A stretch of 64,000 nucleotides of DNA, taken from contig OZ316894.1 of NCBI GenBank assembly GCA_973895155.1, positions 14,523,680 through 14,587,679 on the forward strand, given 5' to 3'. This DNA is from Marsupella aquatica. Taxonomy: Eukaryota; Plantae; Marchantiophyta. Made by a program: the position numbers and the translations under genes. This document shows, piece by piece, positions 17,263 through 49,889 of this stretch. The notes under the pieces were generated by a model, which was not told where the DNA came from, searched no databases, and saw only the letters and a list, made by a program, of their open reading frames with translations. Numbering within the stretch: position 1 is the stretch's first letter; each line of letters starts with the position of its first letter.

Positions 17263-20200
17263 CACTAGTACATTTTTGGCACTTTTTCGATACTCAAAAC
17301 ACGCGTTTCTCAACACGCCCGATACTAAACACAACAGAAAACGTCTGATACTCCCAGCTACGGAACTTCTGATACTACTAACATCAAAAATTATTATCCG
17401 ATATGTTTTGTATCAAAAACTTTATCCAATACCCCGCATATCGGACAATGTCCAAAACATCCTGTATCGCAAATTGAGAGCCGACATGTTTTTCAGACGT
17501 CCGATGATAATAGTATCGAAAGCTAATTCCGATAGGTTTGGTTTTGGACATTTACCAATACAAGTATTATCGGACATATTTTTGCGATACTAGTTACAAC
17601 GGAAATCATTTGCGAAGGCTGAGTTATCGGTTACTATCCGTTGAAATTGCTATCAGACCCCTCCTCGACTGCGGGCTTAAGCGTCCGATTTGTGGAGTAT
17701 TGGATAGTGGCTTCCGATTGTTATAGTATCGGAAAATCCGATACTTTGAGGATGGGCTCAGGGGTCTCACTATATGGGGACCTCCCCATCGTCTGCGACG
17801 TTTTTAGGCCTTGGACCCCCTAAAATGTAAGAAAAAAAATTTATTTTTTAACCCCTATAAAGTTGGAATATTCTTGGAATATTCTAAATTTTGGATTAAA
17901 AAGACCCTAATGTTCTTTTAAGTCTCAAAATTGGATTTAAAAGACCCTATTGTTCTTCTACAAAAATTCTTAAGTCTTCCCTTAGAACCAATAAAATGAC
18001 CCTATCCTTCGTCGCACGTGATATGCCATTTTTGTGGAAGTGAAACCCCCGAGAGGATGGGAAGGGGTTTTTTGCTTTGGCAGTACTGATGTGTGTCCGA
18101 TATGTTTCCGATGTTATTTGAATGGGATATGGTATGGGACTTTAGTGTTTTACAATGTCTAGGTTGCATGGAATTAATGGATTCAGATATGGGGCATACT
18201 TTAAGCAATAGATATGTATACTGCATGAAATTGTGGACAATGAGAAAAATTGTAGAATGCCGATAAAAAGATAGTGCTGGTAAAAATATACATGAAGATG
18301 GTGGGGTCTACAATTTATACTAACTCGTGGGGGGTATGTCTCTATCTTCCACTACAACTACATTGGGTCTCTCTTGGACTATGGACCGTGATCTGGGAAT
18401 ATACGACATGACAATGGACCACTTGGGGTCATTGGGATAGGGTAGGTAAAAGCATTGCTCAAGGTGATGTGGGAAGGCAAAGGGATCTGAGGACCTCCAA
18501 TTGGAACTGATGACACTATTTGCGGATGTCTTCAAACGAGTAAAACCGCATGCATCATCTTCACAAGTACGATTGTGGCCTACAAGATTCATCTTGAACC
18601 ATTTGCACTTGAATACCACTTCCTCCAAAGTAGTATGTGCATGGTACTTCACTGTTAGGATCTCCTCAATCTTCCCATAATGGGCCACGATGGAGCGAAT
18701 GGGATTCATGTCTGACATGCTACTCTGGGAATCTTGGGTGAACCAACCCATCACCCCACAATCCTGTGTAGCTGCCCTCTTCTCATCAAGTTGTTCCACA
18801 CGAAAATGTCTCCCCTTTGACCACATGGCAGTCCGAGTCATGACTATAAGTAGTGGACCATGAACCAAGGTACAAAGTTTATCTGTCACGTTTGGGTAGT
18901 GTAATACACTCTCCCCGGTACCCACCAGGGCATCCACTTCTAACAACTTCTCCTTCGTGTATGGGTGAAACTTGGGAAATAACCGTGGGCGTCGACTGTT
19001 TTGCTTCTCCTCCTCATAAAATGTTGTCCACTCCCCGACAACCTCGGGTGATTTATACAACATAAATGTTGTGAGCTATAAACGCTCTGCTAAGCCTATG
19101 AGACGCTCTCCAGATGCCCCAGTGAGTCTATCATCCTCGTAGTCAGCCTCTCGTGCCGCCTCATCTATCCATCCCCTAGGAGCACTAGGATCTAGTGTGG
19201 CAACTATGTTTGTACATTAAAACATACTCTCTGCTCCAAGATGACGCTCCGCAATGCTACCTTCCACCCTAGTGCGATTAAAGACATATGACTTCATCAC
19301 CCCCATATAACGCTCTACCCAATACATCCATTGACAATGTACTGGGCCTGCAATTGCAACCTCGCGCACTAAATGTATGAGGAAATGAACCTGACCATCA
19401 AAGAATGAGGGAGGGAGTGCCTTCTCCAACTTGCAGACAACCTCTACTCCAAATATCTCCATAGCAACAATGTCATCCTCCTGTACCTCCTTTTGACATA
19501 CCCATCTTAAGAGCTTACCCAATGACCAAAGGGCATCACGAAGTTCCTCACTACCCAATCCAATAATAGCAATTGGAAGAACATGTTCAAGCAACCGATG
19601 ATAATCATGTGTCTTCAAGAAAGATGGCCATTTTGGAGAATCCTCCCCCCCAAATGCCTTCCGAAGATTGGTACCATAACCTATGGGAAACCTCATCAAC
19701 CCAATACGTCTGCGAAACTCAATGCGCTCTACCCTTGTCAAAACCCAAGGATGGATGCTAGGGGGAGCACCAGGGGGTCCAAAGATGGCCAAAAACCCAA
19801 AAGACCATGCATCCCCATCTCCTCACAACTTTCTCTCCAATTGTTATTTTTCTCCCCATATAGATGGCGAATCAATGATTTCCCCACATTCCCCTCAATG
19901 TGCATAGGGTCTAACAAGTGATTAATGGGCATATCTGACCAATATGGCAATTGTGACAATGCAGACAAACGGGTCATGCCACATCTGAATAATGGTAATG
20001 GATCACTCGGATCCTAAACTCTCCCCCATACCTCTCTCCAATATGCTGGATCCTTCCGCTGAGGTTGAGGACGAATATCAGGTTGGCCCTCATCAGTATC
20101 ATAAAGGAATGGATCACTCCTCCAAGGATGGTCTGGTGGAAGATATTTAGTATGACCAATGTAAACAATTTTTTGCAGAGTATATACTTGACTTGGGCCT

Positions 20201-21917
20201 GGCCACCCCCTCCAAATCGGGTCCACGTGTAGAGCAAGCTCGATAGCCTGATGTTTGCAATCCATAAACATATCCAAACCCTGCCCAGTGCATAGAAAAC
20301 ACATTCATAAAATAAGGTTCATCAAGGCAAAAATCTGCATAATTGCAATTAAATACAAGGTTTAGGTACTAGAGGAAATAAGGGTTTACCATACCTGGTA
20401 AATCATGCATGGTCCACATAAGGATGGCCTTTAGAGTAAATATGCGGGATAAACCTCGTGTGTTGTGACGTCCATCATAACAATCCACTCCTCTCCACAG
20501 TTGTATCAACTCATCAATCAATGGCTGCAAGTACACATCAATCTTTTTAACTTGCTTAGGACCCGGAATAATCATGGAGAGTAGTAGGTGACCTTTCTTC
20601 ATGGCCATCCAAGGAGGGATGTTGTAGTTTGTCAACACTATTGGCCACACCGAATATGGTTTGGCTTTTCCTGTCAATGCAAAAGGGCTGATACCGTCTG
20701 CTGCCAAGCCTAGTCGAACATGTCGTGGGTCAATTTTGAACTCTCCCCATCTATCCTCTACAAATTGATTGGCAGGAGAGTCAACCATCATCCGCATGGC
20801 ACTAGAGGGTACAGCCATATCAGAACAATTTTGTGAGTGCCATACCATCATCTCAGCCAACTATGCACATCGGAATTGATGTCGCAATCGAGAGATAAGA
20901 GGAAAGTACCTCATAACCTTTTGCGGTACCTTCCCCGTCAACATGTCATCACGGTACCGTGGCTTCTGACATTTAGGACATGTAGTGGCATTTTCATGCT
21001 CACCCCTAAAAAGAATGCAATCATCCACACATGCATGTATCACCTCATACTTCAGGCCAATGGACCTCAACACATGTTTAGCCTCTTTCCAAGAGGCTGG
21101 CAATGCGTTGCCTACTGGCAAAATACGATCATGCAAGGTACGGAAAACATCATCCAAAAGTAGATTGCTTGCCCCATGTCTTTGCTGCAAGTTGAGCAAC
21201 AACATTATTGATGAGAGCCGAGATAACCTACTCCCCTCGAATATGCGAGTACGGGCATGACGTTGCGCCTCCTCCCATTGCTTGTCTTGGGACCCCCTAG
21301 AAGGATGTGGATGACTAGTCCTTTCATGGGTTGAACCATTGTCCTCCAAACCAATGTCATTGTGATCATCATAGAATTGGTCCATGAGCTCATCCATGGC
21401 CCTCTCCTCATCAAGATGGTCTTGGATAGGATCATCACCATCATGTTGTACCCCATCCTCTTGCCTTTGCGGTTCATGCCCACGGTTGGCCACCATGGCC
21501 TCAACAAGGTGTTGTCGCTAGCTCGTGATATTACCCCAATATCAGGCGTTACATATTGATTCTATCATACAACATCAATTAATTAATCTCATCAACACAT
21601 GCACTGCTGAACAAAATCATTCTCATGTAAACATGTAAAATACTGACATATATATATATACATGTATGTAAGTCCAAGAAACTATCATGGACGACAATGC
21701 AAGGACAATTTTGGTGCATCCCACTCATACTCACACAATAACTCCTCACCAGCTCTAATGGTCCTAACAGCTACTGTCATGATATGGTCATCCATATGTT
21801 TCACAAAATATGGATGTCTAGGTGGACCAAACATTTGAATCCACTCTACATTAGCCTCCAAACCTCCATCTCTACCTGTGGTACTATTGATGTACCCTGC
21901 TAAATTACCGTTCCGAA
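17263..21917. mobile_element. CACTA element 2 (same family as element 1), truncated by Mutator-like copy A
   Basis: CACTAGTACATTTT terminus at 17263 interrupts Gypsy pol; TCCGAT/ATCGGA subterminal motifs run to ~17745. Confidence 0.9.
18320..21561 (-). pseudogene. CACTA TnpD-like transposase (DUF4216/DUF4218/Transposase_21), decayed
   Basis: IHACVDDCILF, RHVRLGLAADG, LMWTMHDLP, LDPMHIEGNV, PPSFFDGQVH, WMYWVERYM, VFKCKWF; clear paralogue of 1-2108. Confidence 0.9.
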
Positions 21918-21927
21918 GGGCATCACC
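21685..21927 (-). pseudogene. 3' remnant of the SET-domain exon in CACTA-2
   Basis: GDALRNGNLAGYINSTTGR...NVEW...DDHIMTVAVRTIRAGEELLCEYEW, homologous to the 3' part of 2218-3180. Confidence 0.82.
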
Positions 21928-22597
21928 ACCGAGATAGGAAACAGGAAAACAGGATTCCTGTTAACAGGAAAACAGGAACTGTTATCAGTAAAGATATGAA
22001 GTTTTTGGCCCATTTTTGATGGAAAGGTAAGACTTGATCGGGTTCCTTGCAACAACAAAATTCACATGCTGTCTCTGTAACTGAATTACTTGTCCACCAT
22101 ATATGCGTAAACCATAGAGTGGGTCCCCCCATACATAGGCTACTGAGGCGAGGCACACTCCAAAAATACCAATCTTAAAAATATCATCGGAATCGGTAAG
22201 GTACTATGTAATAGCGCTAGGCGCTAACAAAAAAACCAAGGGGTTTGAGATGAGACCAAATGGATTGAACGGTGTTCATAAATAAATAATTAAGTACACT
22301 TCAATGAAGTGTGACCTGGAAGGGGAAGATTTATATCCCACGAGAAGAACTCAAATATAGGAAAGTTCACAAACGGAGATTCCGATCGCAAAGATAAGTA
22401 CTGGAAAGCATTCGGACCATAATCAAACAAGATTCACTCAGAAAGGGACAAATTGAAGCTAGCGCCCGACGCTAGCCATATGTTATAACAAAATGTGTAA
22501 AGAAAATGAGTATCTGATTAGGTATCATTGAAAAGATGTGAAACGTTCCAATGCGACAAATCAGTTTGGAGCCGTTGAATGTTACTAAATGTCTAGT

Positions 22598-25500
22598 CTA
22601 TAAGTCCAGAGAATTCTGCCTAGCTAGAATGAGCCTCACCTCACCTACAGTCAGAATTGGCTGACTAGCCAAAGTTGAATCCACCACATCTAGTTTTAGG
22701 ACGTTGGTATACACCCAATAGAGATGCTTGCACGACATGAAGGGCCTACCATGAGAATGGCGATGATAGAAGTCCTCACAAGAACAACATGGGAAAATGC
22801 AAATATGTACCCAATAAGTGTTTGCCGTGCGAAGTCTCTCTTGGGTTTGGATCTGAAATTGTTTGCCCCAAGAGTTCCCGATAGAAACATCAAATTGTTG
22901 AACGAGGGTCATCGACTCCTTGTTTGCAGATTCAATTCTTTTGTTGTGCCCTTGCAAAAGATTTGAACGTGGGATTGTATTTTTACCATTCCTGCTCCAA
23001 AGGCGGATATTTGGCTCAAGGAGATTGATTTTCTCCGGGAAAAGGTTCACATTGATTCGCAAGTCAAAAGGAGATGGAGCAGCCTGACGTCCAGCCTCTG
23101 GATTGACAGCAATCCCTTGCTGAGTCAGGAATTGGACCTTAGCCTTAGAAAGATTAGTTCCTTTCAAAACGGGCAGGCTATGAGGAAATGGGGGAAGATT
23201 CACCACATTACGACGGGGCCGGCTCTTATAGCATGCACTATTGGGACAAAACCAAATCATCTCAGGGTGTGGTTCTCCCCTGAACACGCGATATCCTTTG
23301 ACAACAATGCCAACTACACCATCCATTGACGGGTAACCAACCTTTTTAAGACGATTGCGACAGTCATCTCGATCCAATTTTCCACCAAGAGATCCATTAC
23401 GCTGAGGCCCTGCACCATGTCTCGTCACTCTTCGTAGGTGCCACGCCCCTGGTCGCACATCTGTCTCCAACACAGCTGAGTCATGGACAACCTTTTGGAG
23501 GTTGGGAGGTGCAGACCTTTTTGGAGGTTGGGAGGTTGGGAGGCTGCAGACGACCTTGTTGACCTCCTCCAAGGCGGAGTACTCCAATGTCTGCCTTCTT
23601 CAATTTCACTTTCTGACAGGTCCACAACGCCAATGTCATGGTGAATAGGACCCGATGCAACGGGGGAGAATTCAGTCTTGTTTAAGTTTTTCCTTTTCAT
23701 GCCTCGAGTATTTGGTGATGTTACAAGAATAGTGTCATGCCAATGGGAGTCTTGTGCCGAGATGTTCCCAGAGGCTTGACCTTTCCTCTTCATAGACTTT
23801 GTGGTAACATCCCCATTGAGAGGGCCACTCCTTTCCAGGTCGAATTCAGCCGCACCGGAAAGAAGCATATTGGAAGCATCTTGGAAAAGTTTTGAAGAAC
23901 CTGCCTGGTCTGCCGAACGGAATGCCAATTCCCAAATTGTAGGTCCGGTTCCTCGATTAAGACCTCTCTTATACGCCGTATACACAACAACTTGTGAAAG
24001 AGCCCTATTTTGATCCATCTCACATGCTTCAAATAGACCAGCCTTTTTCTTAGTTTGCCAAGCCTTCATTATGGAATGTGCCGCCTCTGAAGTAGTACAG
24101 TTAGGAATCATAGCGCTTTCCTCTACGCTTTTGTTCTGCATAAAACATTTGGAGCACAGTTTAGGAAATATGGCTTAGTCACTGCATTCAATAAAGAAAC
24201 ATTTGAACCAAATCATTTGGTTAGATTTACGGGTTTAATCAATGCCAGCGCCTGGCGCTACCACCATTCACACTAGAATATGGACAAATACGAGTAACAA
24301 GTGGTTCATAAAACTAGCGCCGGGCGCTAGTATCAAAACTCAGGCAAATATTGGAGTGGAACTAGGACACGGAAGTCACTGGAAATAATGATAGCGCCAA
24401 GCGCTAGTATGACTTTGTTTGATTCCTTCTTTTAAAATGGTGATTCGTGTGTTTACTTGTTTATGGATGTTGAAACTCACCAAACAAATGAAATTTCCCC
24501 ATTGACGCCATCGGACCACCCACCACGCAAGCCAACCTTGGAGCATCCGAAGCTTTCCTGGAACACAATTCCCTGATCTCCACCACATGTCGATTTCCCT
24601 GGAAATTATGTAGACTCCAAGAAATGTTGACGCGTTCCTTAAAGAGTCCCACATCTTCCGGTGCTCTTCTCGTTTTTCTTCCAATACTCCTTTAATTGAA
24701 TGACGATGAAACGATTGATAGAAGTGAAACGCATCCGATCGCTCCTTTTCCGGGTTAGGATGTCCACCAAAAAACATGTTCCGAACAACATTCCATCCAG
24801 CTTGAGCATTGTCAGCCATGAATCCATGGATTACTACGTTGTCTAACCCATTTTCATGGCAAACCTCAATCATCGATTTCCAGGCTTTTTCTAACGACTC
24901 AGAATCTTCAGCTTTCAACTCACATGTGAAGATTGTGCAAAGAGCACGGTAATTGTGATCATAAACGTGAGTGCTAAAAGTTATCCAATCCTTGGTCATT
25001 CTCCTCATCACATCAAAACTAACCCACGCGCCTTCTAGTCAACCTCTAGGTTGCATTTGGCGCAACAAATCAACTCCAAATCCGTGCCCTTTTACTGTCA
25101 TTTTGAAAATATGCGGTCGCTCCTCCTTACAGCCTTGACCTGGCAGCATGTAACGTTGTAGAAATGGAAAGTTTATGCATTTCTGCATTTCCACAAGAAA
25201 CTCTAACTCACCTTTACCTTTTTGGTCTTGCCGAACACTCCAAAAAAGAGATGCAAACTTTTGAGGGGTCGAAACAACCATTAACGACTCCCAAATTTCT
25301 CTTTCCTCCGATTCTCTGATGTCATTGTTGGACACACAGAGAGCCTTCCTTAAAGATCCAGTTATGGCATTCTTCATACCTGATGGTGTGGCAGACGATG
25401 TAGCTTCATGTTGCTTCTTTATGAACTCATGAGCAATATTTTCCGCACCTCGAGAAAAAACTTTACGACTGGGATGCGCATGATTTCCGACATGCACAGC

Positions 25501-26399
25501 AAGACGCGACATATGTTTACATGTATCCGCATCGAGAAGTAATTGCGGGTACATATAAAAAGCATAATTGCTGAACAAGCTTCAGTACAAAAGGGCAATT
25601 GTTGGTAGTAGTGAAAAACTACTCCACCCTCCTCAATAATCTTTCCCACGGTATGTGGCCCCGCAAGTTTGGGTGTCCCATCCCAAGCTTTTGAATTTCT
25701 TCTTCTCTTCCGTAGCAGATAATCACATTTCTGATTTCGACATTCGAGTGCACCGGTACACGTCACTTTACCAAATTCCCAAAACTTTTTAGGTTGGACA
25801 TTCGTAGAAGTTGGAAATATCCGTGTCCAGAAGTAGCAGTCTTTAGGCCTGTCCATGTCACGGAGCCTCGAACCTTTTGATAGCAGACCTTCTGCGGGAG
25901 GCAATTCAAACACAACATTTCCATTGTATTTACTCGGTAGACAATTCACCTGCTCATGAAATCACTTGTTTGGATGAACCGCGACAGTTCACTATGGCCA
26001 GTTGATTTGAGAATGGCATCCATTGCGCTTCGATAGAAGGCCCTGGATTAGCCGATGTTTGCAAATCTACGGCTACCTCCTCCTCTTCACTCTCGGAAAG
26101 GTCAATGAATGGAACCGGATGTCTTTCATTCAGAACGGAATGTTGTCGGAGATTGATATGTATCTCTTTCCAGCGTTGAGGTGCCAAAATCTGACTCCAT
26201 CATCGATATCAAATAGTGTGTCATCTGTCTCCTCGCCAGATGCATGGTCTGGTTTGATGGAATGGATGTCATTGATGGCAACGTCAAATCTTCCACAAAG
26301 ATAGTTCTCACTAACCTGTTTGTACATGTCGGATGAACCTAAAGGGATGCTTACAATCTCCCCAGTATCAGGACGAAGAAGCACGACTGAATTAGACAT
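22598..26399 (-). pseudogene. GCM-like + MULE DDE + SWIM transposase (copy A); intron 24480-24136
   Basis: KVTCTGALECRNQKC...VHVGNHAHP (GCM/WRKY-like Zn module), WVSFDV, GFMADNAQAGWNVVRNMF..AFHFYQS, PNCTTSEAAHS, SWIM CSCEDF..CKHLYWV. Frameshifts present. Confidence 0.8.
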
Positions 26400-27294
26400 T
26401 GCGGGAGAATGATATTAATTTGATAAACAAAGGAACGGAGGAAATAGGAGAACATTACTCGACTTAAGTTAAGTAAACTCATTCTGAACCTCAGAAGATT
26501 ATTGTTTGTAAATGACAAAATGGGTACTAGTCGTTAGGTGCAGACACATAAATGTAGTTTGTCGTTTTGCCAACGACACTACTTACCGGTAACGTGCAAA
26601 AAATGCGATCAGATAATTATTAGCGCCCGACGCTACCATAAAGAAGTACCCGGGTTTCAACTTAGAAACCAGACTGAACATGCTAGCACCAGGCGCTATC
26701 ATTGGGGGACTGTCAAGTCAAAGAGAAATATTTTATTGATTTTGATGGAATTGCTGAAAAAATCAATAAACGTTTCATTTTGTTTTGGAATCGGTACTTC
26801 TTAGGAAAATACAAGGGGTATACATAGCTAGCGCCCAGCGCTGACATAATCTCCTCCCTGTCATCGTCATGTATGAGAGTATTTTTAGTGGTTTTTGATA
26901 CTAGCGTCGGGCGCTAGTATCGATGGAGATGACTTTGGTTTGCGCAACGGTTATATCTAACGGTAACATGTATGAACAAATTCCTTACTTTGTGTTGTTT
27001 TCTGTTAGATTGTTTAACAATACGTTCCCGTTCATTGCTGCATCCACAAATGACTTGAAAGTATACGTTAATTCTACTCATTTCAAACAGTCTCTGGCAC
27101 CTGTCTTTGTTTGGATTGGTCAGTGAGATTCTTTCAATCCTTCTTGTTCTACGTCACATGATGTCAACAGCACTATGATGGAAAAGTTTTAAAGGTTTTT
27201 TGTTGTTCTTTGTGTACGGTAATTTGTTTGGAGCGTGAGGGTAGAGACTGGCTCTGTGTCGTACAGAGACCTTCATGTATTGACATGCTCCACA

Positions 27295-30200
27295 ATGCAA
27301 CCTTCAAGCGCCCCAAGCTCTCCAAGAGGGTATACCACAGTTCCAGAGGAAGATCACGGTCATTGCGAGTCTACACAATCTTTGTTCTCTGGGGCATTTT
27401 ACTCGCGTCGAGTTACAAGGTCAAGCGGAGCAATCACTTCCATCAACGCAACACTACCACACCAGAAGTCCAGAAGGGTCCGAATGGACACGGATAGCAT
27501 GACCGATTACGCGCTGGGAGAGGGCAACAAGGTTGGATTAGGGATGGATGAAGTCATCTCGCGACACATAATGTCATTTGGAAAAGATTTCTGGGGAAAC
27601 GAGAAGGAACCGCCCAGGATTCCGCTTTGTCGGTTGATCCACATGGAGGTAGTGCGGACGCTTCAGAAGGAGAGTGCGTCAATTGAGAAATTGAAAGACT
27701 CGTTCCGAAGTAGTGGCTACAATCCAAGGATTGGAATGCGGTTTTTGTGCAACCGACCAATTCTGATGGTGTGGAGAAAATATGCACTGAGGAGATCAGG
27801 GAGACTTGGGATGCTATTTGGGTTGCTGAGAACGAGAAATTTGAGTTAGAATGCACGACAGATCCAACTTTTACGATCTTGAAAGACAAAATGTTCTTAG
27901 TGTTTGATGGGAATCACCGACTTTACTCGTGGACTATATATGGTCACAAAGGAAAATCCAGACAATGTCAAGTATCATCCCAAAGTTCTCTGCACCATTT
28001 TCAAGGGTGATAAAGCTTCGCAAATTCAGATTGAGGCGGCTATGCACACTGTCAACCAGTAAGTAATTCGGCACAAACTTGTAATTAAACATTTCCGCAA
28101 TCCGTTGCTGTTAAATAAATACTAAAGAGAGTGTTTTTTATGCTAGCGCGTGGCGCTACTAATTTCAAACATGGCCTATTGCAGGTTAGGGCAGGCCGTT
28201 GTTGAACCGTCTTGGATCCTTGACGCAGACAGAATCCGAAGCATTCTCTCTCACGATCTAGAGTACTATAAGTCAATAATTGACAGCGCCAATTATGCAA
28301 AGTTTGAGTATATCAAACAGAAGACTCGAAAACATTCTTGGTACACACGGAAAATGCCTTTGGAAGCTCTTGTTTATATTTTGTGCGAAAACAAAATCAA
28401 AGCTTACATAACCAGTTCAAGATGGACATGGCATTGGCAGCAAGTCAAGGCAGTCCTTGGTTGGCTGATGAGGTCGCAAAGCAACAGTCACTCATGTTGA
28501 AAGAGGCCACCAAAGACTGGTCTACGAAAACATCCAAAATCACTCCTCTTCTTAATCCTGAGTTTGAAGATTTTCTAGGTACTTGTGCAAAGATGTACGT
28601 ATTGATGGAGAAGAACAAGCGAGAGAAAAAAACCCGATTCGGTTGTTTGTACTATGGACCATGCTAGACTATTCACAGCCGTTTTTGCTCTCGATCCAAA
28701 ATTGAGATGCACTTTGCTTGTTGCTCATTGTACTCCAGAGTTGAGAAAACAATTCTTCCACCCTGCCAGTGTGAATGATGATCCAGTGAAGCAGTGGTGT
28801 CACACATGGCAGACCTGGAATACCGTCGAGGGAATCGCAATTGGGATGTTGCAATCTGCAATTTCTGTAGCCATTGAAACACTCCCAATTGATAGGCTTG
28901 CCCATTCAGGGTGTGACTCAGTAGAGGGTCTGATTGAATTATTTCAAGTGAGTTCAGAAGGTATGGGGATCTTGTGAAGGCAAAGTTCTTCAACACCATG
29001 TGGCCATCAAAATACCCTGATAAAGAGGTATATACAGAGAAAAATCAGAAGAGGGCCAAGAGGTATTTGTATTGTTTTTACATATGGATGGAAGTACATT
29101 CCCCGGATGCGCTTTGGGCGTATCCAGCCGCATTTCACAAGTGGATTGTTGCAAAGGAGGGAGATCATGTTGCTGACTTGTATTCGATGTATCCTGCTGA
29201 GGGTAAACTTCCACCACGGGAAATGTCTGAGTGGGAAAGAATTCACTGCCCGTGGTATCTTGACACAGACAAGTGGGATTCACCATTTGACGAAGTGGAG
29301 AAGGATTGGTTTCTTAAACTAGCCAAGTTGCAGATTCTACCCAACATAGTTTTTGAGATGAAGCAAGGGCTCCTGAGCGACGTCGACAAATCATCTACTG
29401 AGTTACAAACAATCTGCGAGACAGTAGTTGTACATGTAGACACGAGCCGCAAGCCGAGAGGGAAAGTGAAAGTAGACACAGCACTGCCAAGTGCATCAAC
29501 GAGATCCGGGAAGAAACATACGTTTCCATTCAAACCCAGTTTAGTTCTTTGCTAGCGCCTGGCGCTACTATTCCTGTACTTCAACCTTAATCCATTTTTT
29601 TTCTTTCTGACACTTATCCCACATTCTATGCAATGTGTGAATAGGTCAAAAGAAGTCGGATGCAGACGCCACTGATGATACAAAGGTTACCCCGGAAGCT
29701 TCAGAAGCAAATACTGGCGCTTTGCCAGATCCACTTAGACCAATTAATTCTGGAAAATCAATTGTACCAGTCGATGCAACGAGTACAAAGAAGAAAAGCA
29801 GGAGGACTCGCGATGTTGGGCAATCAGAAAGGGATTCTCTGGCGGCCACCGGGCTCCAACGTGATGTTGGGAATTTTAAATCCAAGGCATCTCGTCATTG
29901 TTTCGTTGAGACCAGTGTCAGTGAATTAGTGGACAGTGTGTTTAACAAGGAGGAGAAGCCAAAATGGGTTAATGATGCCGAAAAGTGGGGGAAGGACTTA
30001 ATCAAATCGGGATGCCGACTGAAAGGGGTGGTGAGGGGTGGGAAAGAGAGGCCTTTTGGTGTTGACGCTGGTTTTATTTATTTGCCAACTGGGCTAAAAC
30101 CAACTTTGCTTGATAGGAAGGTCCCTAAATGGAACGTTCCCGGCTGTACGCTAGCCCAGTGTTTTTTCCGGGCAATGGATCCCTTTTTGTTGGATGACGG

Positions 30201-31109
30201 AATTATTGCGATACTCCATACAGGGGAGTATGATCAGATTTCACAGGTCATCTCAACATGTCAAGAGTCTAAGAAATTCCAATGTTTGTGTACACATAAT
30301 GTTGTCATGGGGTTCCCCATGTACAAGGCCAAGTCTGATTTGCAGGTAAATCTATTCATCACACTTTCAAAGTTTTGCTAGCGCTAGGCGCTGCTCATTT
30401 TATGTAGTGCTCGATTAGAAATTTTAATCTTTTCCTAGGTACACTACTAATCATACTATTAATTCTTTGCTAGCGCCCGACGCTATTACAATTCTTTGGT
30501 CCTTACTTGTTCATGTTCCCTTTTCAGGTATTCACTTTACGTTTAGATATATTTTGTCGAGTATCATCCAAGGTGAAAGTCCCCAAGGATCCTAAGTTCA
30601 AACCTCTTTCAAGAGCAGAGGATCCCTCTATCACAAATCTGATCGGACTTCCATTTGCGAAGGTGGATACAACTCCAGAGCTTGAATTTGCCGAGAATGC
30701 CAGACTACATCCAGGGTTTATGCAGTATGTTTTGGAACTAATCACGTGTCCCAGAGATATTGTTCTGGATTGGGCTGTAGGTTCTGGGAGTACATTTGTG
30801 GCAGGTGATAATTGTGGTCGATTTGTAATTGGGCTTGAGAATAGGAAGGAGTTCGTTGAAACTACTTCAAAAATATTTCTGGACCTTCTAACTCCCAAAG
30901 TATCTGAGTCCAAAGCCCCTCCGAAGCCTGTGCTTGCAAAACGAAAGAGAGACAAACTTAAATCAATATTAAATTTTGACTCCGAAGATGAGAATGAAGC
31001 AGAAGAGGGGGATGAAGAAGAGGAGGATCCGAACATTCCTAGAGTGTCTTTAACCGGAGAAGATCCGGAATCTAATGGAGGGAGTGACAGCGAAGACTCT
31101 TCTGAGTAA
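27295..31109 (+). pseudogene. ParB/Sulfiredoxin-like domain + helical region + beta-class N6A/N4C DNA-methyltransferase-like domain (copy A)
   Basis: VRTL..IEKLKDSF...GY and MFLVFDGNHRLYSW (~27890-27932); VDAGFIYLPTG..W..FLLDDGIIAILH; HPGFMQYVLELITCPRDIVLDWAVGSGSTFVAGDNCGRFVIGLE. Predicted introns 28059-28184, ~29518-29644 (donor apparently mutated) and 30346-30527. Confidence 0.72.
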
Positions 31110-31723
31110 GAAACTACCGAGTAAGCTCATAAGCTAACCCGGTTTTTATTACGGTCGATTCCCTTCTTCTCTCTTTGATGTCACATTTTTTTTCCTTTTT
31201 TGCAAATATTTTGGCTGTTGACATCAAATCCAATATTCTCCTCCTCAGGTCAGACTGGAATCTTCGCTGGCGTTTCCAACTCAGACGGAAAGTAGCTAGG
31301 CGATATATTGAAACTCCCGAGAAACCATTTGTCTTACCTTCCTATGCTGAAAATGTTGCTAGAAAAGTTGACAGTGTGCCCTAAACTGGGAGAATAAAGG
31401 CTTGAGATTAAGGAGGGGGTCTGATAGAAAATTTATGCGGAACCGATTTGTGGATGATATGGCCAAGAGCGAATTTTTAGACATCGAGGCAGAATCTACC
31501 GATAGGTCCGAATCCCGTGAATCGGAGTGCTCGGATTAACTTGGATCTCTGTTGTTAATTTGGGTGTATTTTTAGTGCAACTATGCTAGCGCCGGGCGCT
31601 ACCCAAATGTATGCCAGAAATACTGTACAATAAAGATATTATATGTCAGTTGTAACCATGGAGTGTCCACTCAAAGTACTCTTTCTATTATAGTAGCGCC
31701 CGGCGCTACTATAATTGTATAAC

Positions 31724-34463
31724 ACACCAAAGCCCCTCTCTTTTCCACCACGCATTACTCCCTTCTCTCTGTCTCTTGACTTTACCAAATCCTTTCCCTA
31801 GGCCTCAACTTTAGTAACCCACATGGGCTTCAGCCCCTTGTTAAATACTGAATTGTAAAATTCATTTAAATTGGACTCCACAAAATAGTGTCGAGAAGAC
31901 CTTCGTTTAAAATGCCTGACATCTCTCTGGAGTCCATAGGAAATAACGTCTCGAGTAGATGATGCTGCTCTGTCCTCACCGGCGCCTCTTTTTTTCTTTT
32001 TCTTAGTGCTAGTTGCATCGATAGGGACAATGGACTTGCCAGCACCATCTAGGGTCACTTGATCCGGGGTTTCTTGAGCTCCAGTGTTTGCCTCCGATGC
32101 CTGAGGAGTTGCATCACTCTTCCCTTTGGCAGCCGGTACCTCCGTGTCAGACTTTTGCCCTCCTGTTAGGCACAAAAACTTGCATGAGTCCAACCTTTTA
32201 GACCAGCGCCAGGCGCTATTAATGAAAGGAATTTCCAATCCTGCATAACCAGCACCAACAAGTAACCAAAAAGTGCTTAGACAACTCACTTTTCTTGAAG
32301 GACCTTGTGGACTCACTTGGTGCAGCTGACTCATTCTTCGCCTTTGCTCTTGGCTTACGGCTTTTGTCAACGTGCATGACAAGAGACTCACAATTCTTTT
32401 GTAACTCAGATGCAGATTCATCAACATCAGACTGTAGACCTTGCTTCATTGCAGACACATAGTTGGCAGGGATTTGGGACTTCTGCAATTTCATGAAGGC
32501 ATCCTTCTCAGCTTTGTCGAACGGCAAATCCCATTTGTTTGTGTCGAGGTACCACGGATAGTGAAGTCTCTCCCACTCCGACAATGAACGTGGTGGAAAC
32601 TTTCCCTCCGATGGGTACATCAAATACAGGTCGGCAAGAGGGTCTCCCTCTTCAATAGATACCCATTTTTGAAATGCAGCAGGGTATACCCATAGAGTGT
32701 CAGGAGATCTAAGCTCCATCCACATGTAAAACCGGTATAGATATCGTTTGGCTCTTTTCCGGTTCCGCTCTGTGTAATCTTCCTTGTCCGCATATTTGGA
32801 AGGCCACAAATTGTTGAAGAATTTTGCCTTCACCAAATCCCCAAAGTTCTTGAATTCATCGAGAATGATCTTCAGCATGGCATCCATTGACTCACATCCA
32901 GACTTTGTGAGATGGTCAGCCGACATCCGGTCAGAAATCTGTTTGAAGGAAGTGTGAAGCATTCCAGTTGCAATTATCTCAACAGAATTCCAAGTATGCC
33001 ATGTATGGCACCACTGCTTCACAGGCTCGTCGTTGACACTTGCAGGATGGAAAAACTGTTTCCGAATCTTAGGAGTGCAGTGGGCTACTAGAAGGGTGCA
33101 CCTCAATTTTGGATCCAGGTATGACACTGCAGTAAACAACCGGGCTCGATCCATGGTGCATACGACTATCTCTGGCTTCTTCTCCCATTTGTTCTTCTCA
33201 GTAACGGGATACATCTCAGCACAGGTTCCCAAATAATCTCCAAAATCTGGATGAAGTAAAGGGGTGATGTTGGTCACTTTGATTGACCAATCTTTGGTCG
33301 CCTCCTTCATCATTGCCTCATGCCTCTTCGTGGTCTCCTCTTTTGATCAAGGCGCACCTTGAGCTTTGGCTAAAGCCATATCAGACTTAAATTGATTTGA
33401 GTAAGACTTGATTTTGTCCACACACAGAATATAGATGAGAGCGTCCTGTGGCATTTTGTGTGTGAACCAAGACCCCTTTCTCGTCTTCTTTCAGATCGCC
33501 TCAAACTTTACCATGTTTGCGCTGTCGATCAGTGGTTTGTAGTGATCAAGATCACGCGACAGAATTTGGGAAATTCTGTCCGCGTCAAGAATCCAGGAAG
33601 GTTCGACGACTGCTTGTCCAAGCCTGGATGAAATGAGAAGGAATTAGTAGCGTCGGACGCTAGCAAAGATTGGGGAATGAACACTTTCGTAAAGCATGTT
33701 TGGTCCAAAATGAATGACAAGGGTAAAAACACTTAACAAATATAACTTACTAGTTCACGGTGTGCATTGCCGCCTCGAGCTCAACTAGCGAACCTCTGTC
33801 ACCATTGAAAATGACGCAAATCACACAAGGATGATACTTCAAGTTGTCCGGATTCTCCCTCGTGACAATTGACCAGGAGTACAATCGATGATTTCCGTCA
33901 AACACACAGAACATTTTATCTTTTAGAATATGGAATGTTGGATCTGCATCACACTCTTCCTCAAACTTCTTGTTCTCTGCAACCTAGATTGGATCCCAAG
34001 AGTCCCGGATCTCGCTGGTGCATATCTGAGGAACTCCATTAGCATTTGCAGGCTGAACGTAGAAAGGCATCCCAATGCGCGAGTTGTACCCTATGACCCA
34101 GAATGATTCTTTCAACTTCTCGATTGACGCACTTTCTTTCTGTAAGGTTTGAACAAGCTCCATGGGGAGCAATCTACAAAGAGGAATTCGAGGTGGCTCC
34201 TTATCAAATCCTCATAAATCCTTCTCGAACGGCAACGCATGCTTTGATATTACCTCGTCCATCGATAAGCCAATGTCACTGACTTCACCCATGGAGACCT
34301 CCTTAGGGTCCATTCTTCCTCTTCTCGACCTTGGGAAGGGCTGTGTAGATTCAGCTTTGGAAGTTGACAGGGACGCAGTCGATCGAGTGACGTGACGGGT
34401 GTATACAGAACCAGCTAACGAAGACTGAGAGGACTCAGAATGACCACCATCAGCCTCCCCCAT
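31724..34463 (-). pseudogene. ParB-like gene (copy B), truncated before the MTase domain
   Basis: PPRIPL, GYNSRIGMPFYVQP, VFDGNHRLYSW, MDRARLFTAV, WPSKY..KRAKRYLY. Introns 33750-33624 and 32289-32163 at the same positions as in copy A. Homology stops at GGKERGFGV. Confidence 0.8.
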
Positions 34464-35504
34464 TCTGATATCACCCAGCCAAAAGATGTTGTGGAGAGGG
34501 ACTCGACCATCTGACAGTGTCGTACGCGCCGTGTAGTTCTTGTGACGATCACCGAGCAGGCTGTACGGGACCAATAAAGGACCCACATACACACTTGACA
34601 AACTTGTACAGTCCGAGGTCTGAGCGCTTAAATGGACTAAATTATCTACAACAGCAATCCCCACCTCGTATTAAGTCACCAATACGATGGACCCAACCAA
34701 TCGATTACAACGGTCAAAAGTACAGATGGCATTCTCCGATTGGACTTTCATCCGAGACAAAAAGAAAAAGGGTTTTGTGAACCTCAATCTATTCTAATAT
34801 TACCGTTGGAAAGTGTCCGTTGGAACCAGAACAATGTCGGTAATTAAAGATAGCGCCAAGCGCTATTATAAAACATACACTCAACTGAATTTGAAAATAC
34901 CGTCTTCCAATAGCGCTCGACACTAGTATCGATAATAATATCTATAAATTTTCAAATTTTGCGTAGATGTCAACCCGCCAACGTTAATAGCGCTCGACGC
35001 TAGTATAGATGTGACGCCAATGACATGGTCCTTATTTTGTAATCTGATTAAGTAGGTTGCTGTATGCAAGGAGTAGCTATTGATATTGCATAACAATTAG
35101 CAAGATGGCAAGAATAAGGGCAATCATGGCGTTAAGAGTAGGGAAATAAAAGCTATGTCGCGGGTGGTCGATGACCATATCTCTTTCAATATGTCACCAA
35201 ATCCGGATATGTAAAGAGCATTGGAAAGATCTGGTCAAGGCGAGTAAAATCGATATAAAATGCTTGGGAAACGGAGGTGTATTAAGGAAGATACGGCCTG
35301 ATTAGTGTGACGGGTTAACTTGTGGCCGGAATTAGCGGATTCGGCTTCAGTTTCGGGTTAACCCAAGCTCGGCCACGGTTTAGCTTAGGTAAACACGGCT
35401 TCAGCTTAGCTCAGGTAAGCACGGCTTCAGCTTAGGCTTAACCCGGGTTCAGATTAGATTGATCTCGGGTTAGACTCGAGTATAATGCTCATCGAGAAAA
35501 GATC

Positions 35505-38500
35505 GTGCCTTTGGCTGTGTATCGGCAGAGTGCAATGGATACAATCTTGAAATCCAAAGGTCATAGTGAATTGTCTCGGTTTATAAGGGGGAGTGATTTT
35601 GTTCATCACGTAGTGCCTAGTCTTCCCACATCTTACAATGGGAATGTGGTTTTTGAGTTACCCCCGGTAGACTGTGTGAACGCGAAAGGTGAACGTTTGA
35701 AAGATATGGGTCGCGGTAAGGATTGTTATTACTGGACTTGGATTGTGAAAAGTCTTCAAATGTTCTTCCGAAGAAAATGTGGGATTTTGGGAAAGTTCAG
35801 TGTACGGGATCGCTGCAATGTCAAAATAATGCTTGTTTGTGGTGGAAAGACAACAAGTTTTGGAAATAATGAGATGTGGGCAAGAACCCCAAAACTTTCG
35901 GGCCCGTTCCGAGTTAGGGAATTGATCTCCAAAGGTGGAGTTGTTTGTCACCATTGCTCCAAACCTCCAATGTGCGTTGAGGCCTGCCCTGCTCTAATGT
36001 TCTACATGTATCCATCTGCGAAAGTTGACGTAAAGTCTTTGGCCCACATGTTGTGACTTGCTGTTCATATGGGATTTCACAATCATCCCAGTCGACGGGT
36101 CTGGTTGAGGGAGGCAAAAAAGGTAGCAAGGTCTCATCTGGAGAAGGGATTCAGTGCAAACCCCATGGCAACCCCAACAGGGATAAAAAACTCTGCCACT
36201 GAGACATTGACAAATACATTTTGCGAGGCCTCTGTTGAAGAAATCTCTCTTGAAGAAGAGAAGGAAATCTGGGAGTCCCTGATGGTCGTCGCATCTCCTT
36301 AGAAGTTTGCATCCGTGTTAAGGAGTGTCCGTCAAGATCAAAAGGGGAAAGGGGAACTGGAATTTCTTGTGAGGATGCAAAAGTGTATCCAACTGCCTTT
36401 GCTTCAGAGGTTCTTGCTCCCTGGTCAAGGCTGCCGAGACGAGAGTGCTCATATCTTTAAAATGACTGTAAAAGGTGACGGTTGTGGTCTGGACCCGCTC
36501 CAAAGAATGAAACCTAGGGGGTCGTTAGAGGGTTCATGGGTAAGTTTTGATGTGATGCATCAAAGCACGACAAATTGGCTTACTTTCAGTGCCCACGTAT
36601 ATGATCATCATTACCGGGAACTTTGCACCATATTCACTTGTGAGCTAAAGGCCGAAGATGCAAAATCTCTGGAGAGAGCCTAGCGTTTGATGCTAGAGGT
36701 TTCCGATGAAAATGGTTTATAGGATGTTACAATTCGGGGATTCATGATGGACAATGCTCAAGCTGGCTGGAATGCTATTCGAAGCATGTTCTTTGACGGC
36801 GTACCCGACCTAGAGGAAGAAAGATCAGATGCCTTTCATTTTTTCCAATCTTTTCATCGTCATTCCCGAGAAGGTGTGAAAGATGGAAAGCACGTAGAGC
36901 ACAAGGAGATGTGGGATCGTCTTTGGAACGCATCAGCTTTCTTGAAAGCGTATCGAATCTCTAGGGAAATTGATGACTGGTGGAGGTCTAGCAATTGTCA
37001 CTCAGGCAAACTTTGGATGCTCCAAGGGTGGTTGTCTTGGTGGGTTGTTCGATGGAGACAATGGGGGAACTTCATAAGACTGGTGAGTTCTAGTCTTTTC
37101 TAGTATGCATTTGCCCATTAATAGCGCTCGACGCTACTAAAACATGCGTGAGACAGCATAGTTCCTTATCTGCAAGAGTAGCGCCAAGTGCTAGTAATCC
37201 ATTTGGCCTATGAGTGATATAAGGACTACCTTTATTTTGTGTTCAACTGTACTTTACATGGAAACATCATCATCAAGTATGGTATACTAGCGCCTGGCGC
37301 TACTATTATTTCCATTGTGTTGCCACTTGTGAGTGCAATTTCTTATATGTACTAAACACTTGCGTGCAATGTTTCAGAGCAAGAGTGCCGAAGAAGCTGG
37401 GATGATTCCAAATTGTACTGGATCGGAATCTAGGCATGTTGGAATGAAAGCATGGCAACAGAAAAAGAAGGTTGGTCTCTTTGAAGGATGCAAAACGGAC
37501 CAAAGTAGAGTTGTTGCTCAAATTGCTGCTTATACGACATACAAAAGGGGATTGAACAGAGGAACTGGCCCAACTATTTTTGAGCTTGCCTTCAGATCGG
37601 CAGACCTGGCGGGGTCACTGCGTCTCTTTGAGGAAGCCACCAATCTTCTCCTGTCAAACGCTGCTGAGTTTGATTTGGAAAGAAGCGTTCCATTGAATGG
37701 GGATGTTGTAACTCAATCTATGAAACAAAAAGGACATGCAACTGGGAACGTCTCGGCAGAAGACTTGCACAGGCATGATACCATCCTTGTTACTTCACCA
37801 AATACAAAAGGTTTGAAAAGGAGAAACCTGCATTCCATTGATTTTGAGAAAATGCCTTCTATGCCTTCAGCCGGTGGAATTGATGGGGTCCATAATTTGT
37901 CCAAAAGCAATACTTCTGAGGAAGTTGTAGTCATTGACACACCTTCGCGACAAGCAACGAGATCCTCTGTCCCACCAGTGACCCCTGCAAGAACTGTCGA
38001 GACTGCATATTGTTTTTCAGTTTTCCCAATGGAAAGTGAAGTACCTCCCGGTGCCTGGCAATTGCGTTGGACCTCAAAACGGGGTGCAGGTCCAGTGTGT
38101 AACGGAACCCTTGGACGGGGAGGGAGTCATGATGAATGTTGAAATCGAGTAAAGAAGGTAGGCCTTCCGAATCCAGATGGTGTTGTTGCAATTTCTGTGA
38201 GGGGATGTAGAATGTTCAGGGGGCAACCTTATAACGATCAGATATGGTTTTGCCCCAACAACCACTATCACCAAAGCACAACAAGGAGATGAGTCTCGAA
38301 CATTCCCAATGTTCCTTCCCATCTTCCAATTGCCAGAGGAACGAATCTATTTGGAGCAGAGATTCAATTTTTGAAAGAACAAGGACTTATTCTCTCTGAA
38401 GGCCGTGGAGATGAAATCGAAGCACCGTTGTCATCTGCGTTACGGATTGATGTCAATCTTTTCCCAGAGAGGATCAACCTAACTGACCCATGTGTGAGAT

Positions 38501-38904
38501 GCGCTTCAAGGAACGAGAAGAAATGCTTGCAAAGAGTGCATCTTACCCACACCCATTTGAAGAGAATTGAAGCCTCTAAAAAAGAAGTCATGAGCGTCAT
38601 TGGAGAGAGAGAGATCACGAGTGGAAATGCATCGGGGAAACAGTTTTGTATCCGGACCCATGAACATGAGAGATCAGTCACCTCTTACTGGGTTCAGATA
38701 TGTTGTTTCCCATGTTGCTCCTACGAGGATTTCTACCGTCGGCATACTTATCGGAAGCCTTACATGCCTTGCAAACATGTGTATTGGGTGTTCAAGAATG
38801 TGTTCAAACTGGATGTGCACGATTCGACATTATGTAGCCAGCCAATTCTAACGTTGGGAGACGTCCGTTACATACTTGATAGGCAGTTGGGAACAAGAAT
38901 TTAG
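35505..38904 (+). pseudogene. GCM-like + MULE + SWIM transposase (copy B); intron 37083-37377
   Basis: SYNGNVVFELPP, CHHC..C..CPALMFY, GFHNHP, WVSFDV, FMMDNAQAGWNAIRSMF..FHFFQS, PNCTGSESRH, PCCSYEDF..CKHVYW. Confidence 0.8.
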
Positions 38905-39192
38905 ATTGTTGCTTTAACGTTGAACAACTAGAATTGTAGTTTGTCTTTTCTAACGGGCAGAAGTGAGTTGTTTAAGTGCTGTTTTTTTAGTATAATACAA
39001 TACTAGCGTCGGGCGCTAGTATTGTATGACTTGTGTTTTGACTTCATAATTTGTTGCAATATATTGGAGTCCTTGTGTGAAATCGTCAAAAATATTCCTC
39101 TGATGTCGTATAGTGGTGGGCCCCACCACAATGTTGTCCGCACAATTATTGCATATATGGACGCTAAATACCCTGAAGAGAAGAAACTAAAA

Positions 39193-39346
39193 TGCATACA
39201 AGAAAAGAAATACTTGTACGAGAAAACAAAAACTCATACAAGAAAACAGAAACTCGTACGAGTAAATAGATATGCTCATACAAGTAACTTGTTTACTCGT
39301 ACGAGACAAAATTTTGCTTGTACGAGGCAAAATTTTCTCGTATGAG
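39193..39346. repeat. Subterminal array of the 10-bp palindrome CTCGTACGAG (8 units, 20-22 bp period)
   Basis: Units at 39193 (degenerate), 39213, 39233, 39253, 39275, 39296, 39317 and 39337; variants are mostly C>T/G>A. Confidence 0.85.
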
Positions 39347-39385
39347 CATATCTATTTACTATTTGCTATCACGGTGGTTATACCC

Positions 39386-46700: not shown

Positions 46701-47406
46701 AGGAAGGTCAACAACTCTGTCACAAATATATTGGGAACATTGTGATTGCCACAGATGTTCAACAACAACACGACAAAACCCAGCTTGGAGCAGTTCGACC
46801 CCTCGTAGATAGGATGCAAGCTTCTTTGATGTGTTTTGGGCCCCCAAACACCCACTCCCTCTCTGCTGCACCTTCCCCAATGTCAAAGTCAGGTTGAGCT
46901 TGGCCGTCGCCAATGTGTGGCTGCGGTTCATTGTCCTCTTCTGATTCCACTGTGTCGTAAAAAGCATCAAGGTCTTCAAAAATCTCTTGAACCATTCTTG
47001 GGACATCCATCCCACCGTCCTCAGTGACTGCCTCTGCATCTCCATCTTGGTCATCCACGTTCTCATGTTGGACCCCAGGACCATCCTCTGCACAGTCTAT
47101 GTCCTGCTCTACGTAGTCTCTACGCCTAGCTGTATTAGAATCCACAAAGTCAGCTCTCCACTCTTCATCAGAGGAGTCTTCTTCTACTGGTACATTCCAA
47201 ACCCTCCACCGAGGGTGCCTTTCATGCCGCAGCAGGTGAAGGTGCACAGTGTTCAAACTCAACGACTTGAATCCTTGGCACTGTGTGCATGGGCATCTCA
47301 TCCTCCTACTCCTACCTTGGGCGGCCCGGGCTTGTTCACGCATCCACAATTTAGAATCATGATGCCTAATCCTAAATGGGTTGTGAAGAGGCAACCTTGG
47401 AGCCAT
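43707..47406 (-). pseudogene. CACTA TnpD-like transposase with one apparent frameshift near 46850
   Basis: MRCPCTQC..HL, IDACPDGCVLF, LRHFPLIPRL, FGLSLDGVNPF, IADYPG, DVMHIEKNI, KTHDYH, FPPAFFDVMTH, RWMYPMERYM, EPFVFPSQVEQAFF. Confidence 0.92.
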
Positions 47407-47732
47407 CACTATACACACGCACTCAGCACCCTGTCATTTTATTATGCAAGTGAAAAATACACTTCCTGTTAAGGATTTCACCCCCGACTGTACTTGCCAA
47501 AATACGTAACGTTCCAAAAAAACAAAAAAACAAAAAATATAGGTGCCTGAGTCATGTACCTATTCTCAAGTGAATGAGACAAAATTCCTAAATGTTTGAG
47601 GGTGTCAACTCCTCCGCTGTCCTCACATGTACTGCCTCTGCACGTACATCCATGACCATATCAGAGTCCAATCATGTATAGTCATAGACACAGGTGCCAG
47701 GTGCGAGACCGGTGTGAGATGTCCTCATCTTA

Positions 47733-48302: not shown

Positions 48303-48442
48303 GTAGATTCACAGTCACACCCCACGCAGCAGGAAACAACAATCACTTCAACTGCGACCAACCATGACAAGATGAGTTAGTTCAAGGATCACATTTATTA
48401 CAAAATTGTGTTTTATACAAAAATATGAGGGACTCCTACTCC

Positions 48443-49306: not shown

Positions 49307-49889
49307 CTAATCACTGCAGACCGGAAGATAATGCGTTCACCTGATAATCGGAGGGCCCTTAAAATGCTGCGTTTATAACTTGGTCCAGTCCAGTCGTCTG
49401 GTGAGTCTCTACTCCGATTCCAAACGGGAGAAATATTGGGACAAACGTACTAGACACCTGCAAGCATGCACCTCATAGTTTGAATATGTGCCTTCACAAT
49501 ATTGAAGGTGACAAGTGCAATTGTTTTGTGATGCCACATACAGATGTTGTAAATGGGCAGACATTCAATGAGAATACAAAATGTTGGTACACTTTAAGGG
49601 AATTCTCGCAAATTAAATAGCCTTGTAACTTATATGCTCATAATGAGAAGTCCTGATTTAATTTAAGCAGTGTCATGTAAGTCGTGATCAAAATGATTGC
49701 AGAGTTAAAAAAGTTCCTAGAAGGCTTAAGGGCAGTTTTTGAAGGCATGTACCCAGGAACAAGTAATGAACTTAGGGTACTTGTTGCCTAAGCATCCTCT
49801 CCTACAGAGGTCCTTCTTCTCAAAATTGGAATGTCTGCAATCTCCAAGGTATCCACATCAGGTGCACTATGCATGTATATTATTCAGGT

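Follow-up and report, generated by a model that had tools for sequence, protein, structure and literature searches.

Does a plant transposon carry a protein that recognises the transposon's own DNA? The question is raised by a locus of the liverwort Marsupella aquatica (GenBank assembly GCA_973895155.1, contig OZ316894.1). Within a 64,000-nucleotide stretch (contig positions 14,523,680 to 14,587,679, forward strand; hereafter the window), positions 21918–39385 hold two decayed, inverted copies (A and B) of one Mutator-like element, joined to each other. Each copy pairs a transposase gene with a divergently oriented, spliced cargo gene, and copies of one 15-bp palindrome are dispersed through its non-coding DNA. 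A preliminary description, made from the sequence alone, had proposed a new system in which a cargo protein that is part ParB-like and part DNA methylase-like recognises the palindromes and marks its own element. Our preferred reading, to which we assign a probability only slightly above one half (about 0.55), is that the cargo protein reads the palindromes to recognise and protect its own element, keeping it away from host silencing.

Palindromes confined to the non-coding DNA of the element

The coding blocks of copies A and B are 67–71% identical and copy B mirrors copy A, so the shared layout of two diverged copies, as first described, stands. The introns of the element genes are of the GT-AG type, which along with CpG depletion and the identity of the named relatives described below points to a non-seed land plant. 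Stops and frameshifts disrupt both copies. The palindrome family, TAGCGCC-N-GGCGCTA, ranked first in a blind scan for recurrent spaced palindromes. At two mismatches or fewer, 23 sites were found against 0.02 expected, a number reached by none of 100 shuffles; at three or fewer there were 24, all inside 22212–39018, with none in the remaining 46.5 kb of the window. The earlier claim of confinement to non-coding DNA also held, as no palindrome centre (0/24) fell in a coding interval, even though coding sequence makes up 72% of the 17,468 bases of the element region (binomial 6e-14, a simple test on coding intervals drawn by hand). All 12 non-coding segments of the element hold at least one palindrome: introns contain 11 of the sites, the stretches between the divergent genes 7, and the DNA downstream of genes 6. 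A longer consensus for the half-site is about T(A/G)(C/G)TAGCGCC. Its CpG is retained in 45 of 48 half-sites, a figure raised by the choice of sites on their consensus. The palindromes are single sites with diverged flanks, mostly imperfect near the centre.

Between the copies, synonymous sites are saturated (pS, the proportion of synonymous differences, 0.74–0.86) and nonsynonymous divergence (dN) is 0.19–0.35 across all five exon comparisons, estimated from codons filtered for local identity with two wrong-frame rows left out; dN/dS is not computable for four of the five, as synonymous divergence (dS) is saturated. The gap between the two values shows that both element genes were formerly under purifying selection. 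No non-coding block of at least 40 bases aligns between A and B by blastn, and the palindrome motif is nevertheless common to both. Given the synonymous saturation, the motif has thus outlived the neutral sequence around it. As a separate observation, only a few bases separate the junction between the copies from the longest palindrome (31687–31715, site 31694; perfect 14-bp arms), which may have helped to cause the break or may owe its length to it.

A predicted ParB/Srx-like domain and a methylase-derived domain in the cargo protein

The copy A cargo gene, in a model whose start codon and intron-2 donor are uncertain, encodes in order a ParB/Srx-fold domain, a helical middle domain, a linker and a beta-class methylase domain. 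The VFDGNHRL motif first noted at the N-terminus is present in both copies. The N-terminal exon of the copy B cargo has 177 relatives at E ≤ 0.001. A relative, P0009 (46% identical to the cargo N-terminus), was modelled with a predicted local distance difference test score (pLDDT) of 87.9. Foldseek placed ParB, Noc, KorB and PadC at the top for this model (ParB probability 0.96, E 0.06). In a wide VIA search, the top eight rows all belong to the ParB/Srx superfamily (Z 4.6–7.0, with unrelated rows starting at 3.7), led by PadC (Z 7.0, root-mean-square deviation 3.2, 96 aligned), KorB (6.7) and sulfiredoxin (6.2). This count includes SerK, SbnI and Atu1540, which we take to be members of the superfamily. 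GxxRxxA is present in both window copies and largely kept in 78 aligned relatives (G in 73, R in 66, A in 55), an upstream arginine is kept in 69 of the same 78, and a C-terminal asparagine is also conserved. Bacterial ParB has GERR where the cargo has GNHR. Considering the model and these residues, the cargo N-terminus is predicted to adopt a ParB/Srx fold with a nucleotide pocket. Family searches with the cargo N-terminus gave weak rows below cut-off for DndB, DUF1015 and DGQHR, and its profile had no meaningful match in a sequence search of the PDB.

In the Atlas, P0009 most resembled fungal DUF3723 clusters (0.96) and one cluster of which 11% is ParB_N (0.91). Given these look-alikes, DUF3723 may itself be a ParB/Srx-fold protein; no paper treating both DUF3723 and ParB was found in a literature search whose coverage is poor for subscription journals.

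The middle domain is helical and 426 amino acids long, and no longer homologue of its exon was found among 2,005 candidates. A likeness, noticed by eye, to the helices that follow the helix-turn-helix (HTH) of ParB was considered and is not supported.

For the C-terminus, the amino-methyltransferase likeness first reported for copy A was confirmed: its C-terminal exon matches Pfam N6_N4_Mtase (32.4 bits, cut-off 26.7), the region matches CcrM (E 8.7e-6), and hhalign aligns it to phage enzymes over 203 columns (probability 88.9, E 2.4e-6). The motif order is permuted, with IV before I, and the S-adenosylmethionine (SAM)-binding motif is kept. The nearest phage methylases (three enzymes) carry DLPYG, which profile alignment sets on the DLP[ST]G of the cargo family. 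Judged by these profiles and motifs, the domain is derived from a beta-class amino-methyltransferase and related to the phage DLPY enzymes. None of three phage methylase loci has an annotated ParB neighbour, and no donor cassette of ParB and methylase is thus shown. The UniRef name "Trimethylguanosine synthase" on several Riccia members (P0161, P0159, P0168 and others) is probably an automatic mislabel, as these members align to DNA amino-methylases.

Relatives of the cargo and a change of motif

Among 30 relatives of the copy B cargo exon that were looked up by name, 14 were from Riccia sorocarpa and 4 from Adiantum, and none carried an algal name. Two further cargo searches returned only Riccia matches (22/22 and 26/26), spread over eight contigs of unequal length as expected of a mobile gene. 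Cargo relatives thus occur in liverwort and fern genomes. Riccia P0161 (1,207 amino acids) matches all parts of the window cargo in the same order, and the fusion of ParB-like and methylase domains is common to Riccia and fern proteins. When viral and prokaryote contigs were scanned, neither cargo relatives (0/7 and 0/7) nor transposase relatives turned up, and the N-terminal domain had no phage matches.

A metagenome scan yielded four loci from 15 candidates, of which three (L001, L002 and L003) are spliced, plant-like relatives; the fourth, L004, matched over 27 residues and was judged unrelated. L002 is the row nearest copy B (93/88, not starred, in a 52-row tree with six rows left out), its cargo is 54–60% identical to that of the window, and it keeps intron 1. 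There it carries palindromes of the GAAGCCC-NN-GGGCTTC type in a 20-base array, with 16 GAAGCYC half-sites in 815 intron bases versus none in 1,116 exon bases, by a motif defined after L002 had been inspected. In L001 the homologous intron carries yet another palindrome, an imperfect one, twice. The window motif, TAGCGCC-N-GGCGCTA, is absent from L001, L002 and L003.

A paired-palindrome scan of viral contigs returned one further locus, L005, which was rejected as a relative: it belongs to a phage satellite that is unrelated to the element and shares no homology with it. Just downstream of its probable replication gene (L005:5001-5134) lie four near-identical 15-bp palindromes like the window motif, likely origin iterons.

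The transposase and the history of the two copies

The preliminary description had named a GCM-like/MULE/SWIM transposase. The MULE assignment stands, as the Atlas places the catalytic region among MULE clusters (0.91, cluster 75% PF10551), 22 of 30 Atlas matches carry the MULE family set, and by eye the D, D and E motifs can be made out in both copies. None of the six transposase pieces matched a transposase family in Pfam. The GCM-like and SWIM labels are a matter of resemblance to the known motifs, seen by eye, in an N-terminal Cys/His pattern and a C-terminal CxCx(n)CKH; such an arrangement has been described for MULE transposases (PMC1702500).

The outer ends of the composite are homologous 22-bp termini (18/22 alike, beginning GGG), and only left termini survive. 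Near 31716 the 3' region of copy A meets copy B coding sequence a little ahead of methylase motif IV, which means that neither copy has kept its right end. Inspection of the termini revealed no target-site duplication around the composite, as expected if the copies inserted separately, and we read the arrangement as two independent insertions joined by a deletion. Mobility of the composite as one unit was rejected on the same ground.

Candidate readers of the palindromes

We take the cargo protein as the probable reader because the sites are distributed like those of the Arabidopsis protein VANC21 and the predicted fold of the cargo is that of palindrome-reading proteins. In addition, different cargo subfamilies have different motifs, and candidate sites for the transposase lie at the ends. 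The switching of motif in the relatives and the separate subterminal repeats favour the cargo. By this account a cargo dimer would read the two-fold symmetric palindrome, and nucleotide binding would close a clamp that spreads from the dispersed palindromes over the element. Such clamp-like spreading is a tentative element of the account, and we hold it to be less likely than not. The methylase domain would still bind SAM and DNA, probably without writing canonical N4-methylcytosine (4mC) or N6-methyladenine (6mA), and protection would then be due as much to occupancy or base-flipping as to any written mark. For the transposase, the termini and subterminal repeats would be the likely sites instead. 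The most far-reaching version appears unlikely to us: that land-plant Mutators possess a nucleotide-gated ParB sliding clamp, which would load at the palindromes of its own subfamily in all introns and gaps and cover the entire element, and a base-flipping, methylase-derived shield against host 5-methylcytosine (5mC), with a lock-and-key code between protein and palindrome, in a module passed among transposon superfamilies across eukaryotes.

Alternatively, the transposase could itself use its GCM-like zinc domain to bind the internal palindromes, be it for self-activation or for synapsis of the ends, with the cargo doing something else. A Mutator transposase can be a sequence-specific activator (10.64898/2026.08.24.746577), the palindromes flank and sit within the transposase gene, and the A and B transposases, at 60–65% identity, are close enough to share a site. 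However, the palindrome nearest the element end is about 295 bases away in copy A and about 370 in copy B, and each end has short repeats of its own, which differ between the copies (AACAGGAA in A, CTCGTACGAG-type in B) whereas the internal palindrome is common to both. Moreover, the transposase of AtMu1 peaks at the terminal inverted repeats (10.64898/2026.08.24.746577), and palindromes are what the bacterial members of the cargo's fold read. We therefore regard binding by the transposase as improbable; it likely uses the termini and subterminal repeats and not the palindromes.

The cargo might also bind the palindromes as a KorB-like regulator or scaffold, for self-repression at the divergent promoters, looping or holding the excised element, and not for anti-silencing. 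KorB and PadC being the two best structural matches, the 7 of 24 sites between the divergent genes and the altered catalytic motif of the methylase all suit this role, but the 11 intronic sites and 6 sites 3' of genes form an even spread that suits coverage of the whole element, and the methylase part has kept its SAM-binding motif in a fusion shared with Riccia and fern proteins. We think this role has rather a small chance of being the right one. Smaller still is the chance that the palindromes are host transcription-factor sites, RNA hairpins or neutral slippage repeats. The 20-base tandem array of the L002 motif and the similar 15-mers of the unrelated L005 would fit such an origin, and L001 and L002, with their other motifs, may come from other hosts, in which case a host-factor model would also fit. 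Yet the transposon-rich flank lacks the motif, the window sites are single, with diverged flanks, and were kept despite saturated divergence, their central imperfections and one-base spacer make poor hairpins, and some lie outside the transcribed genes.

Several results weigh against the cargo protein as a palindrome reader that protects its element, beyond this uncertainty over the hosts of L001 and L002. For the fold, the VIA matches to ParB/Srx proteins are all middling (Z under 8), no Foldseek match of the P0009 model reached E ≤ 0.001 (best 0.05), and no ParB family was found for the cargo N-terminus in Pfam, PHROGs or NCBIfam. Outside the methylase, Pfam matched no family in the cargo, an HTH family included, and no DNA-binding domain was identified; the middle-domain model, at pLDDT 66.9, has no clear fold match, which is not a sign of a novel fold. 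For the sites, half-site conservation is inflated by the way they were chosen, and CpG observed/expected in the element genes (0.62–0.70) is only modestly above that of the flanks (0.52 and 0.40). For the relatives, the L002 motif is post hoc, the more distant L003 has T-rich tandem repeats and no palindromes, leaving intronic palindromes in two of three plant-like relatives, and all three loci, at 1.2–1.9 kb, are too short to show a transposase, so that the pairing with a Mutator is known from the window only. For the methylase, stacking on the flipped base is normally the task of the aromatic residue in motif IV. Of 36 regex matches among the collected proteins, 30 have D[LM]P[ST]G at motif IV, one (a fern) has DVPF and none has PY; copy A has YLPTG, with Y at the catalytic D, so the catalytic motif (D/N/S)-x-P-(Y/F/W) is not found there, and copy B lacks the motif IV region. 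Since copy A and the Riccia relatives have another residue at the aromatic position, canonical catalysis in them is doubtful, as is methylation as the self-mark proposed in the preliminary description; that the domain transfers methyl groups at all is a possibility we incline against.

Coordinates and surroundings of the element

The features of the two copies are collected in Table 1.

Table 1 Features of the two element copies, in positions of the window.
Feature	Position	Strand	Remarks
Copy A left terminus (22 bp)	21918..21939	+	18/22 identical to copy B terminus
Copy A subterminal repeats, AACAGGAA	21940..21978		4 exact copies, one inverted; candidate transposase sites, role inferred
Copy A transposase pseudogene	22598..26399	-	Exons 26399-24481 and 24135-22598; frameshifts, stops
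Copy A transposase intron	24136..24480	-	3 palindromes (24246, 24315, 24392)
Copy A divergent intergenic region	26400..27294		4 palindromes (26621, 26684, 26829, 26902)
Copy A cargo pseudogene	27295..31109	+	4 exons (~27295-28058, 28185-29490, 29645-30345, 30528-31109)
Copy A ParB/Srx-like domain	27538..28058	+	DGNHR at 27906; frameshifted; fold inferred from relative P0009
Copy A cargo intron 1	28059..28184	+	One palindrome (28144); intron also in copy B, L001, L002
Copy A cargo intron 2	29491..29644	+	One palindrome (29553)
Copy A methylase domain	29875..30962	+	YLPTG near 30079, motif I DWAVGSG at 30768; split by intron 3
Copy A cargo intron 3	30346..30527	+	Two palindromes (30379, 30471)
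Copy A 3' non-coding region to A/B junction	31110..31715		Two palindromes (31587, 31694)
Copy B cargo pseudogene	31716..34463	-	Exons 34463-33751, 33623-32290, 32162 to ~31716; cut before methylase motif IV
Copy B cargo introns		-	One palindrome each (33648, 32204)
Copy B intergenic region	34464..35459		3 palindromes (34851, 34911, 34988)
Copy B transposase pseudogene	~35460..38904	+	Intron 37083-37377, 3 palindromes (37122, 37179, 37288)
Copy B candidate catalytic D/D/E	near 36549, 36750, 37426	+	Assigned by eye
Palindrome 3' of copy B transposase	39004..39018		Homologue of the copy A site 22460; another copy A site at 22212
Copy B subterminal repeats, CTCGTACGAG type	39213..39346		7 copies at <=2 mismatches; candidate transposase sites, role inferred
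Copy B left terminus	39364..39385	-	

Just upstream of the copy B transposase (35340-35450) are three to four short repeats of CGGCTTCAG; this region has no counterpart of the N-terminal coding region of copy A and is perhaps an insertion or replacement. The flanks of the element hold CACTA, copia-type and long interspersed nuclear element (LINE) fragments. The CACTA elements, at 918-3180, 18320-21900 and 43707-50597 (all on the minus strand), have chromatin-related cargo: at 2218-3180 there is a SET domain beside the transposase, and at 48443-50597 there are BRCT and PHD-like domains. The SET cargo is reminiscent of the SET-bearing accessory genes of algal elements. Elsewhere in the window (6604-7265), a 189-bp tandem repeat lies within a Gly/Ser-rich open reading frame of 461 amino acids that has no Pfam hit.

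Significance and comparison with known systems

For few transposons (VANDAL/VANC, Spm TnpA) has it been demonstrated that an accessory gene lets them bind their own sequence and change its epigenetic state. The spread of the VANC effect along a whole element calls for an explanation, and a ParB-type clamp would give a concrete mechanism in a eukaryotic nucleus. The algal papers discussed below proposed self-binding without a tested site; the window locus supplies a defined 15-bp candidate. The relatives add a second and a third candidate site suited to swap comparisons, and apparently full-length liverwort gene models exist (for example R1sor_027256). If the mechanism were true, such a loader, retargetable and able to spread along DNA, could serve as a tool for epigenome editing.

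The claim that this is a new system is not supported, as the same pair of domains and the same self-binding hypothesis have been published (PMC12477816; 10.1101/2025.02.11.637652; for further related literature see PMC4738411, PMC6446971 and PMC13547354). In Ectocarpus, the element Sola1-1_Ec32 has a 1,104-amino-acid gene for a ParB-like and N4/N6-methylase protein on the strand opposite the transposase, for which self-binding and self-modification were proposed (PMC12477816). It resembles the window cargo in these respects and differs in belonging to the Sola superfamily and to a brown alga, and the accessible part of that paper mentions no palindromic sites; the comparison is by description. 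In the red alga Bostrychia, PAG3 is a gene for a ParB-like domain and a 2-oxoglutarate (2OG) oxygenase with adjacent tandem inverted repeats, and accessory genes homologous to those of Bostrychia are reported on Chondrus Mutators (10.1101/2025.02.11.637652). PAG3 and PAG2, on red-algal Plavaka, Mutator and Zisupton elements, share with the window element a transposon-borne ParB-like domain, nearby inverted repeats and the self-binding hypothesis (10.1101/2025.02.11.637652). In PAG3, however, the ParB-like domain is fused to the oxygenase and the methylase is separate (PAG2, with SET; 10.1101/2025.02.11.637652), whereas the window element has one fused protein, and the PAG3 repeats, as far as described, are tandem arrays beside the gene, whereas the window palindromes are single sites in every intron and gap. 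Like PAG3 and Sola1-1_Ec32, the window element combines a ParB-like domain and a DNA-modifying domain on a DNA transposon, and its inverted repeats are dispersed, not tandem.

A parallel in site distribution is VANDAL21 of Arabidopsis, also Mutator-like, whose accessory protein VANC21 has its motifs in introns, intergenic and terminal DNA (PMC5735166). VANDAL motifs are family-specific and change between families (PMC5735166), as the window motif does relative to L001 and L002, two relatives only. The VANC motifs differ from the window sites in being 9-bp, non-palindromic and tandem, whereas ours are single 15-bp palindromes, and anti-silencing by VANC has been demonstrated experimentally (PMC5735166). 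The bacterial systems ParB-parS, KorB-OB and Noc match the cargo in predicted fold, GxxRxxA and palindromic sites of 15–16 bp; unlike these cytidine triphosphate (CTP) clamps, the cargo has no identified HTH and no ParA, and is spliced and fused to a methylase. To our knowledge, VANC has neither a ParB nor a methylase domain.

The beta-class amino-methylases of phages and plasmids (DLPY; CcrM fold) share the permuted order from IV to I with the cargo, which has T or S in place of the aromatic residue. Marchantia DN4MT1 (TSPPY; 10.1101/2021.02.12.428880) and bdelloid N4CMT (SPPY; PMC8885841) are host genes with an intact motif, whereas the motif of the cargo is altered. DUF3723 of the fungal Starships, which are tyrosine-recombinase elements, is the best Atlas look-alike of the cargo N-terminus (0.96), a lead without an alignment, and is known as a conserved transposon cargo (10.1101/2021.12.13.472469). 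No account of the cargo gene in land-plant Mutators was found in the literature, where our coverage of subscription journals is poor. Overall, what is new at this locus relative to these systems is the land-plant Mutator carrier, the presence of sites in every intron and gap, a motif swapped between homologous introns and a methylase with a changed active site.

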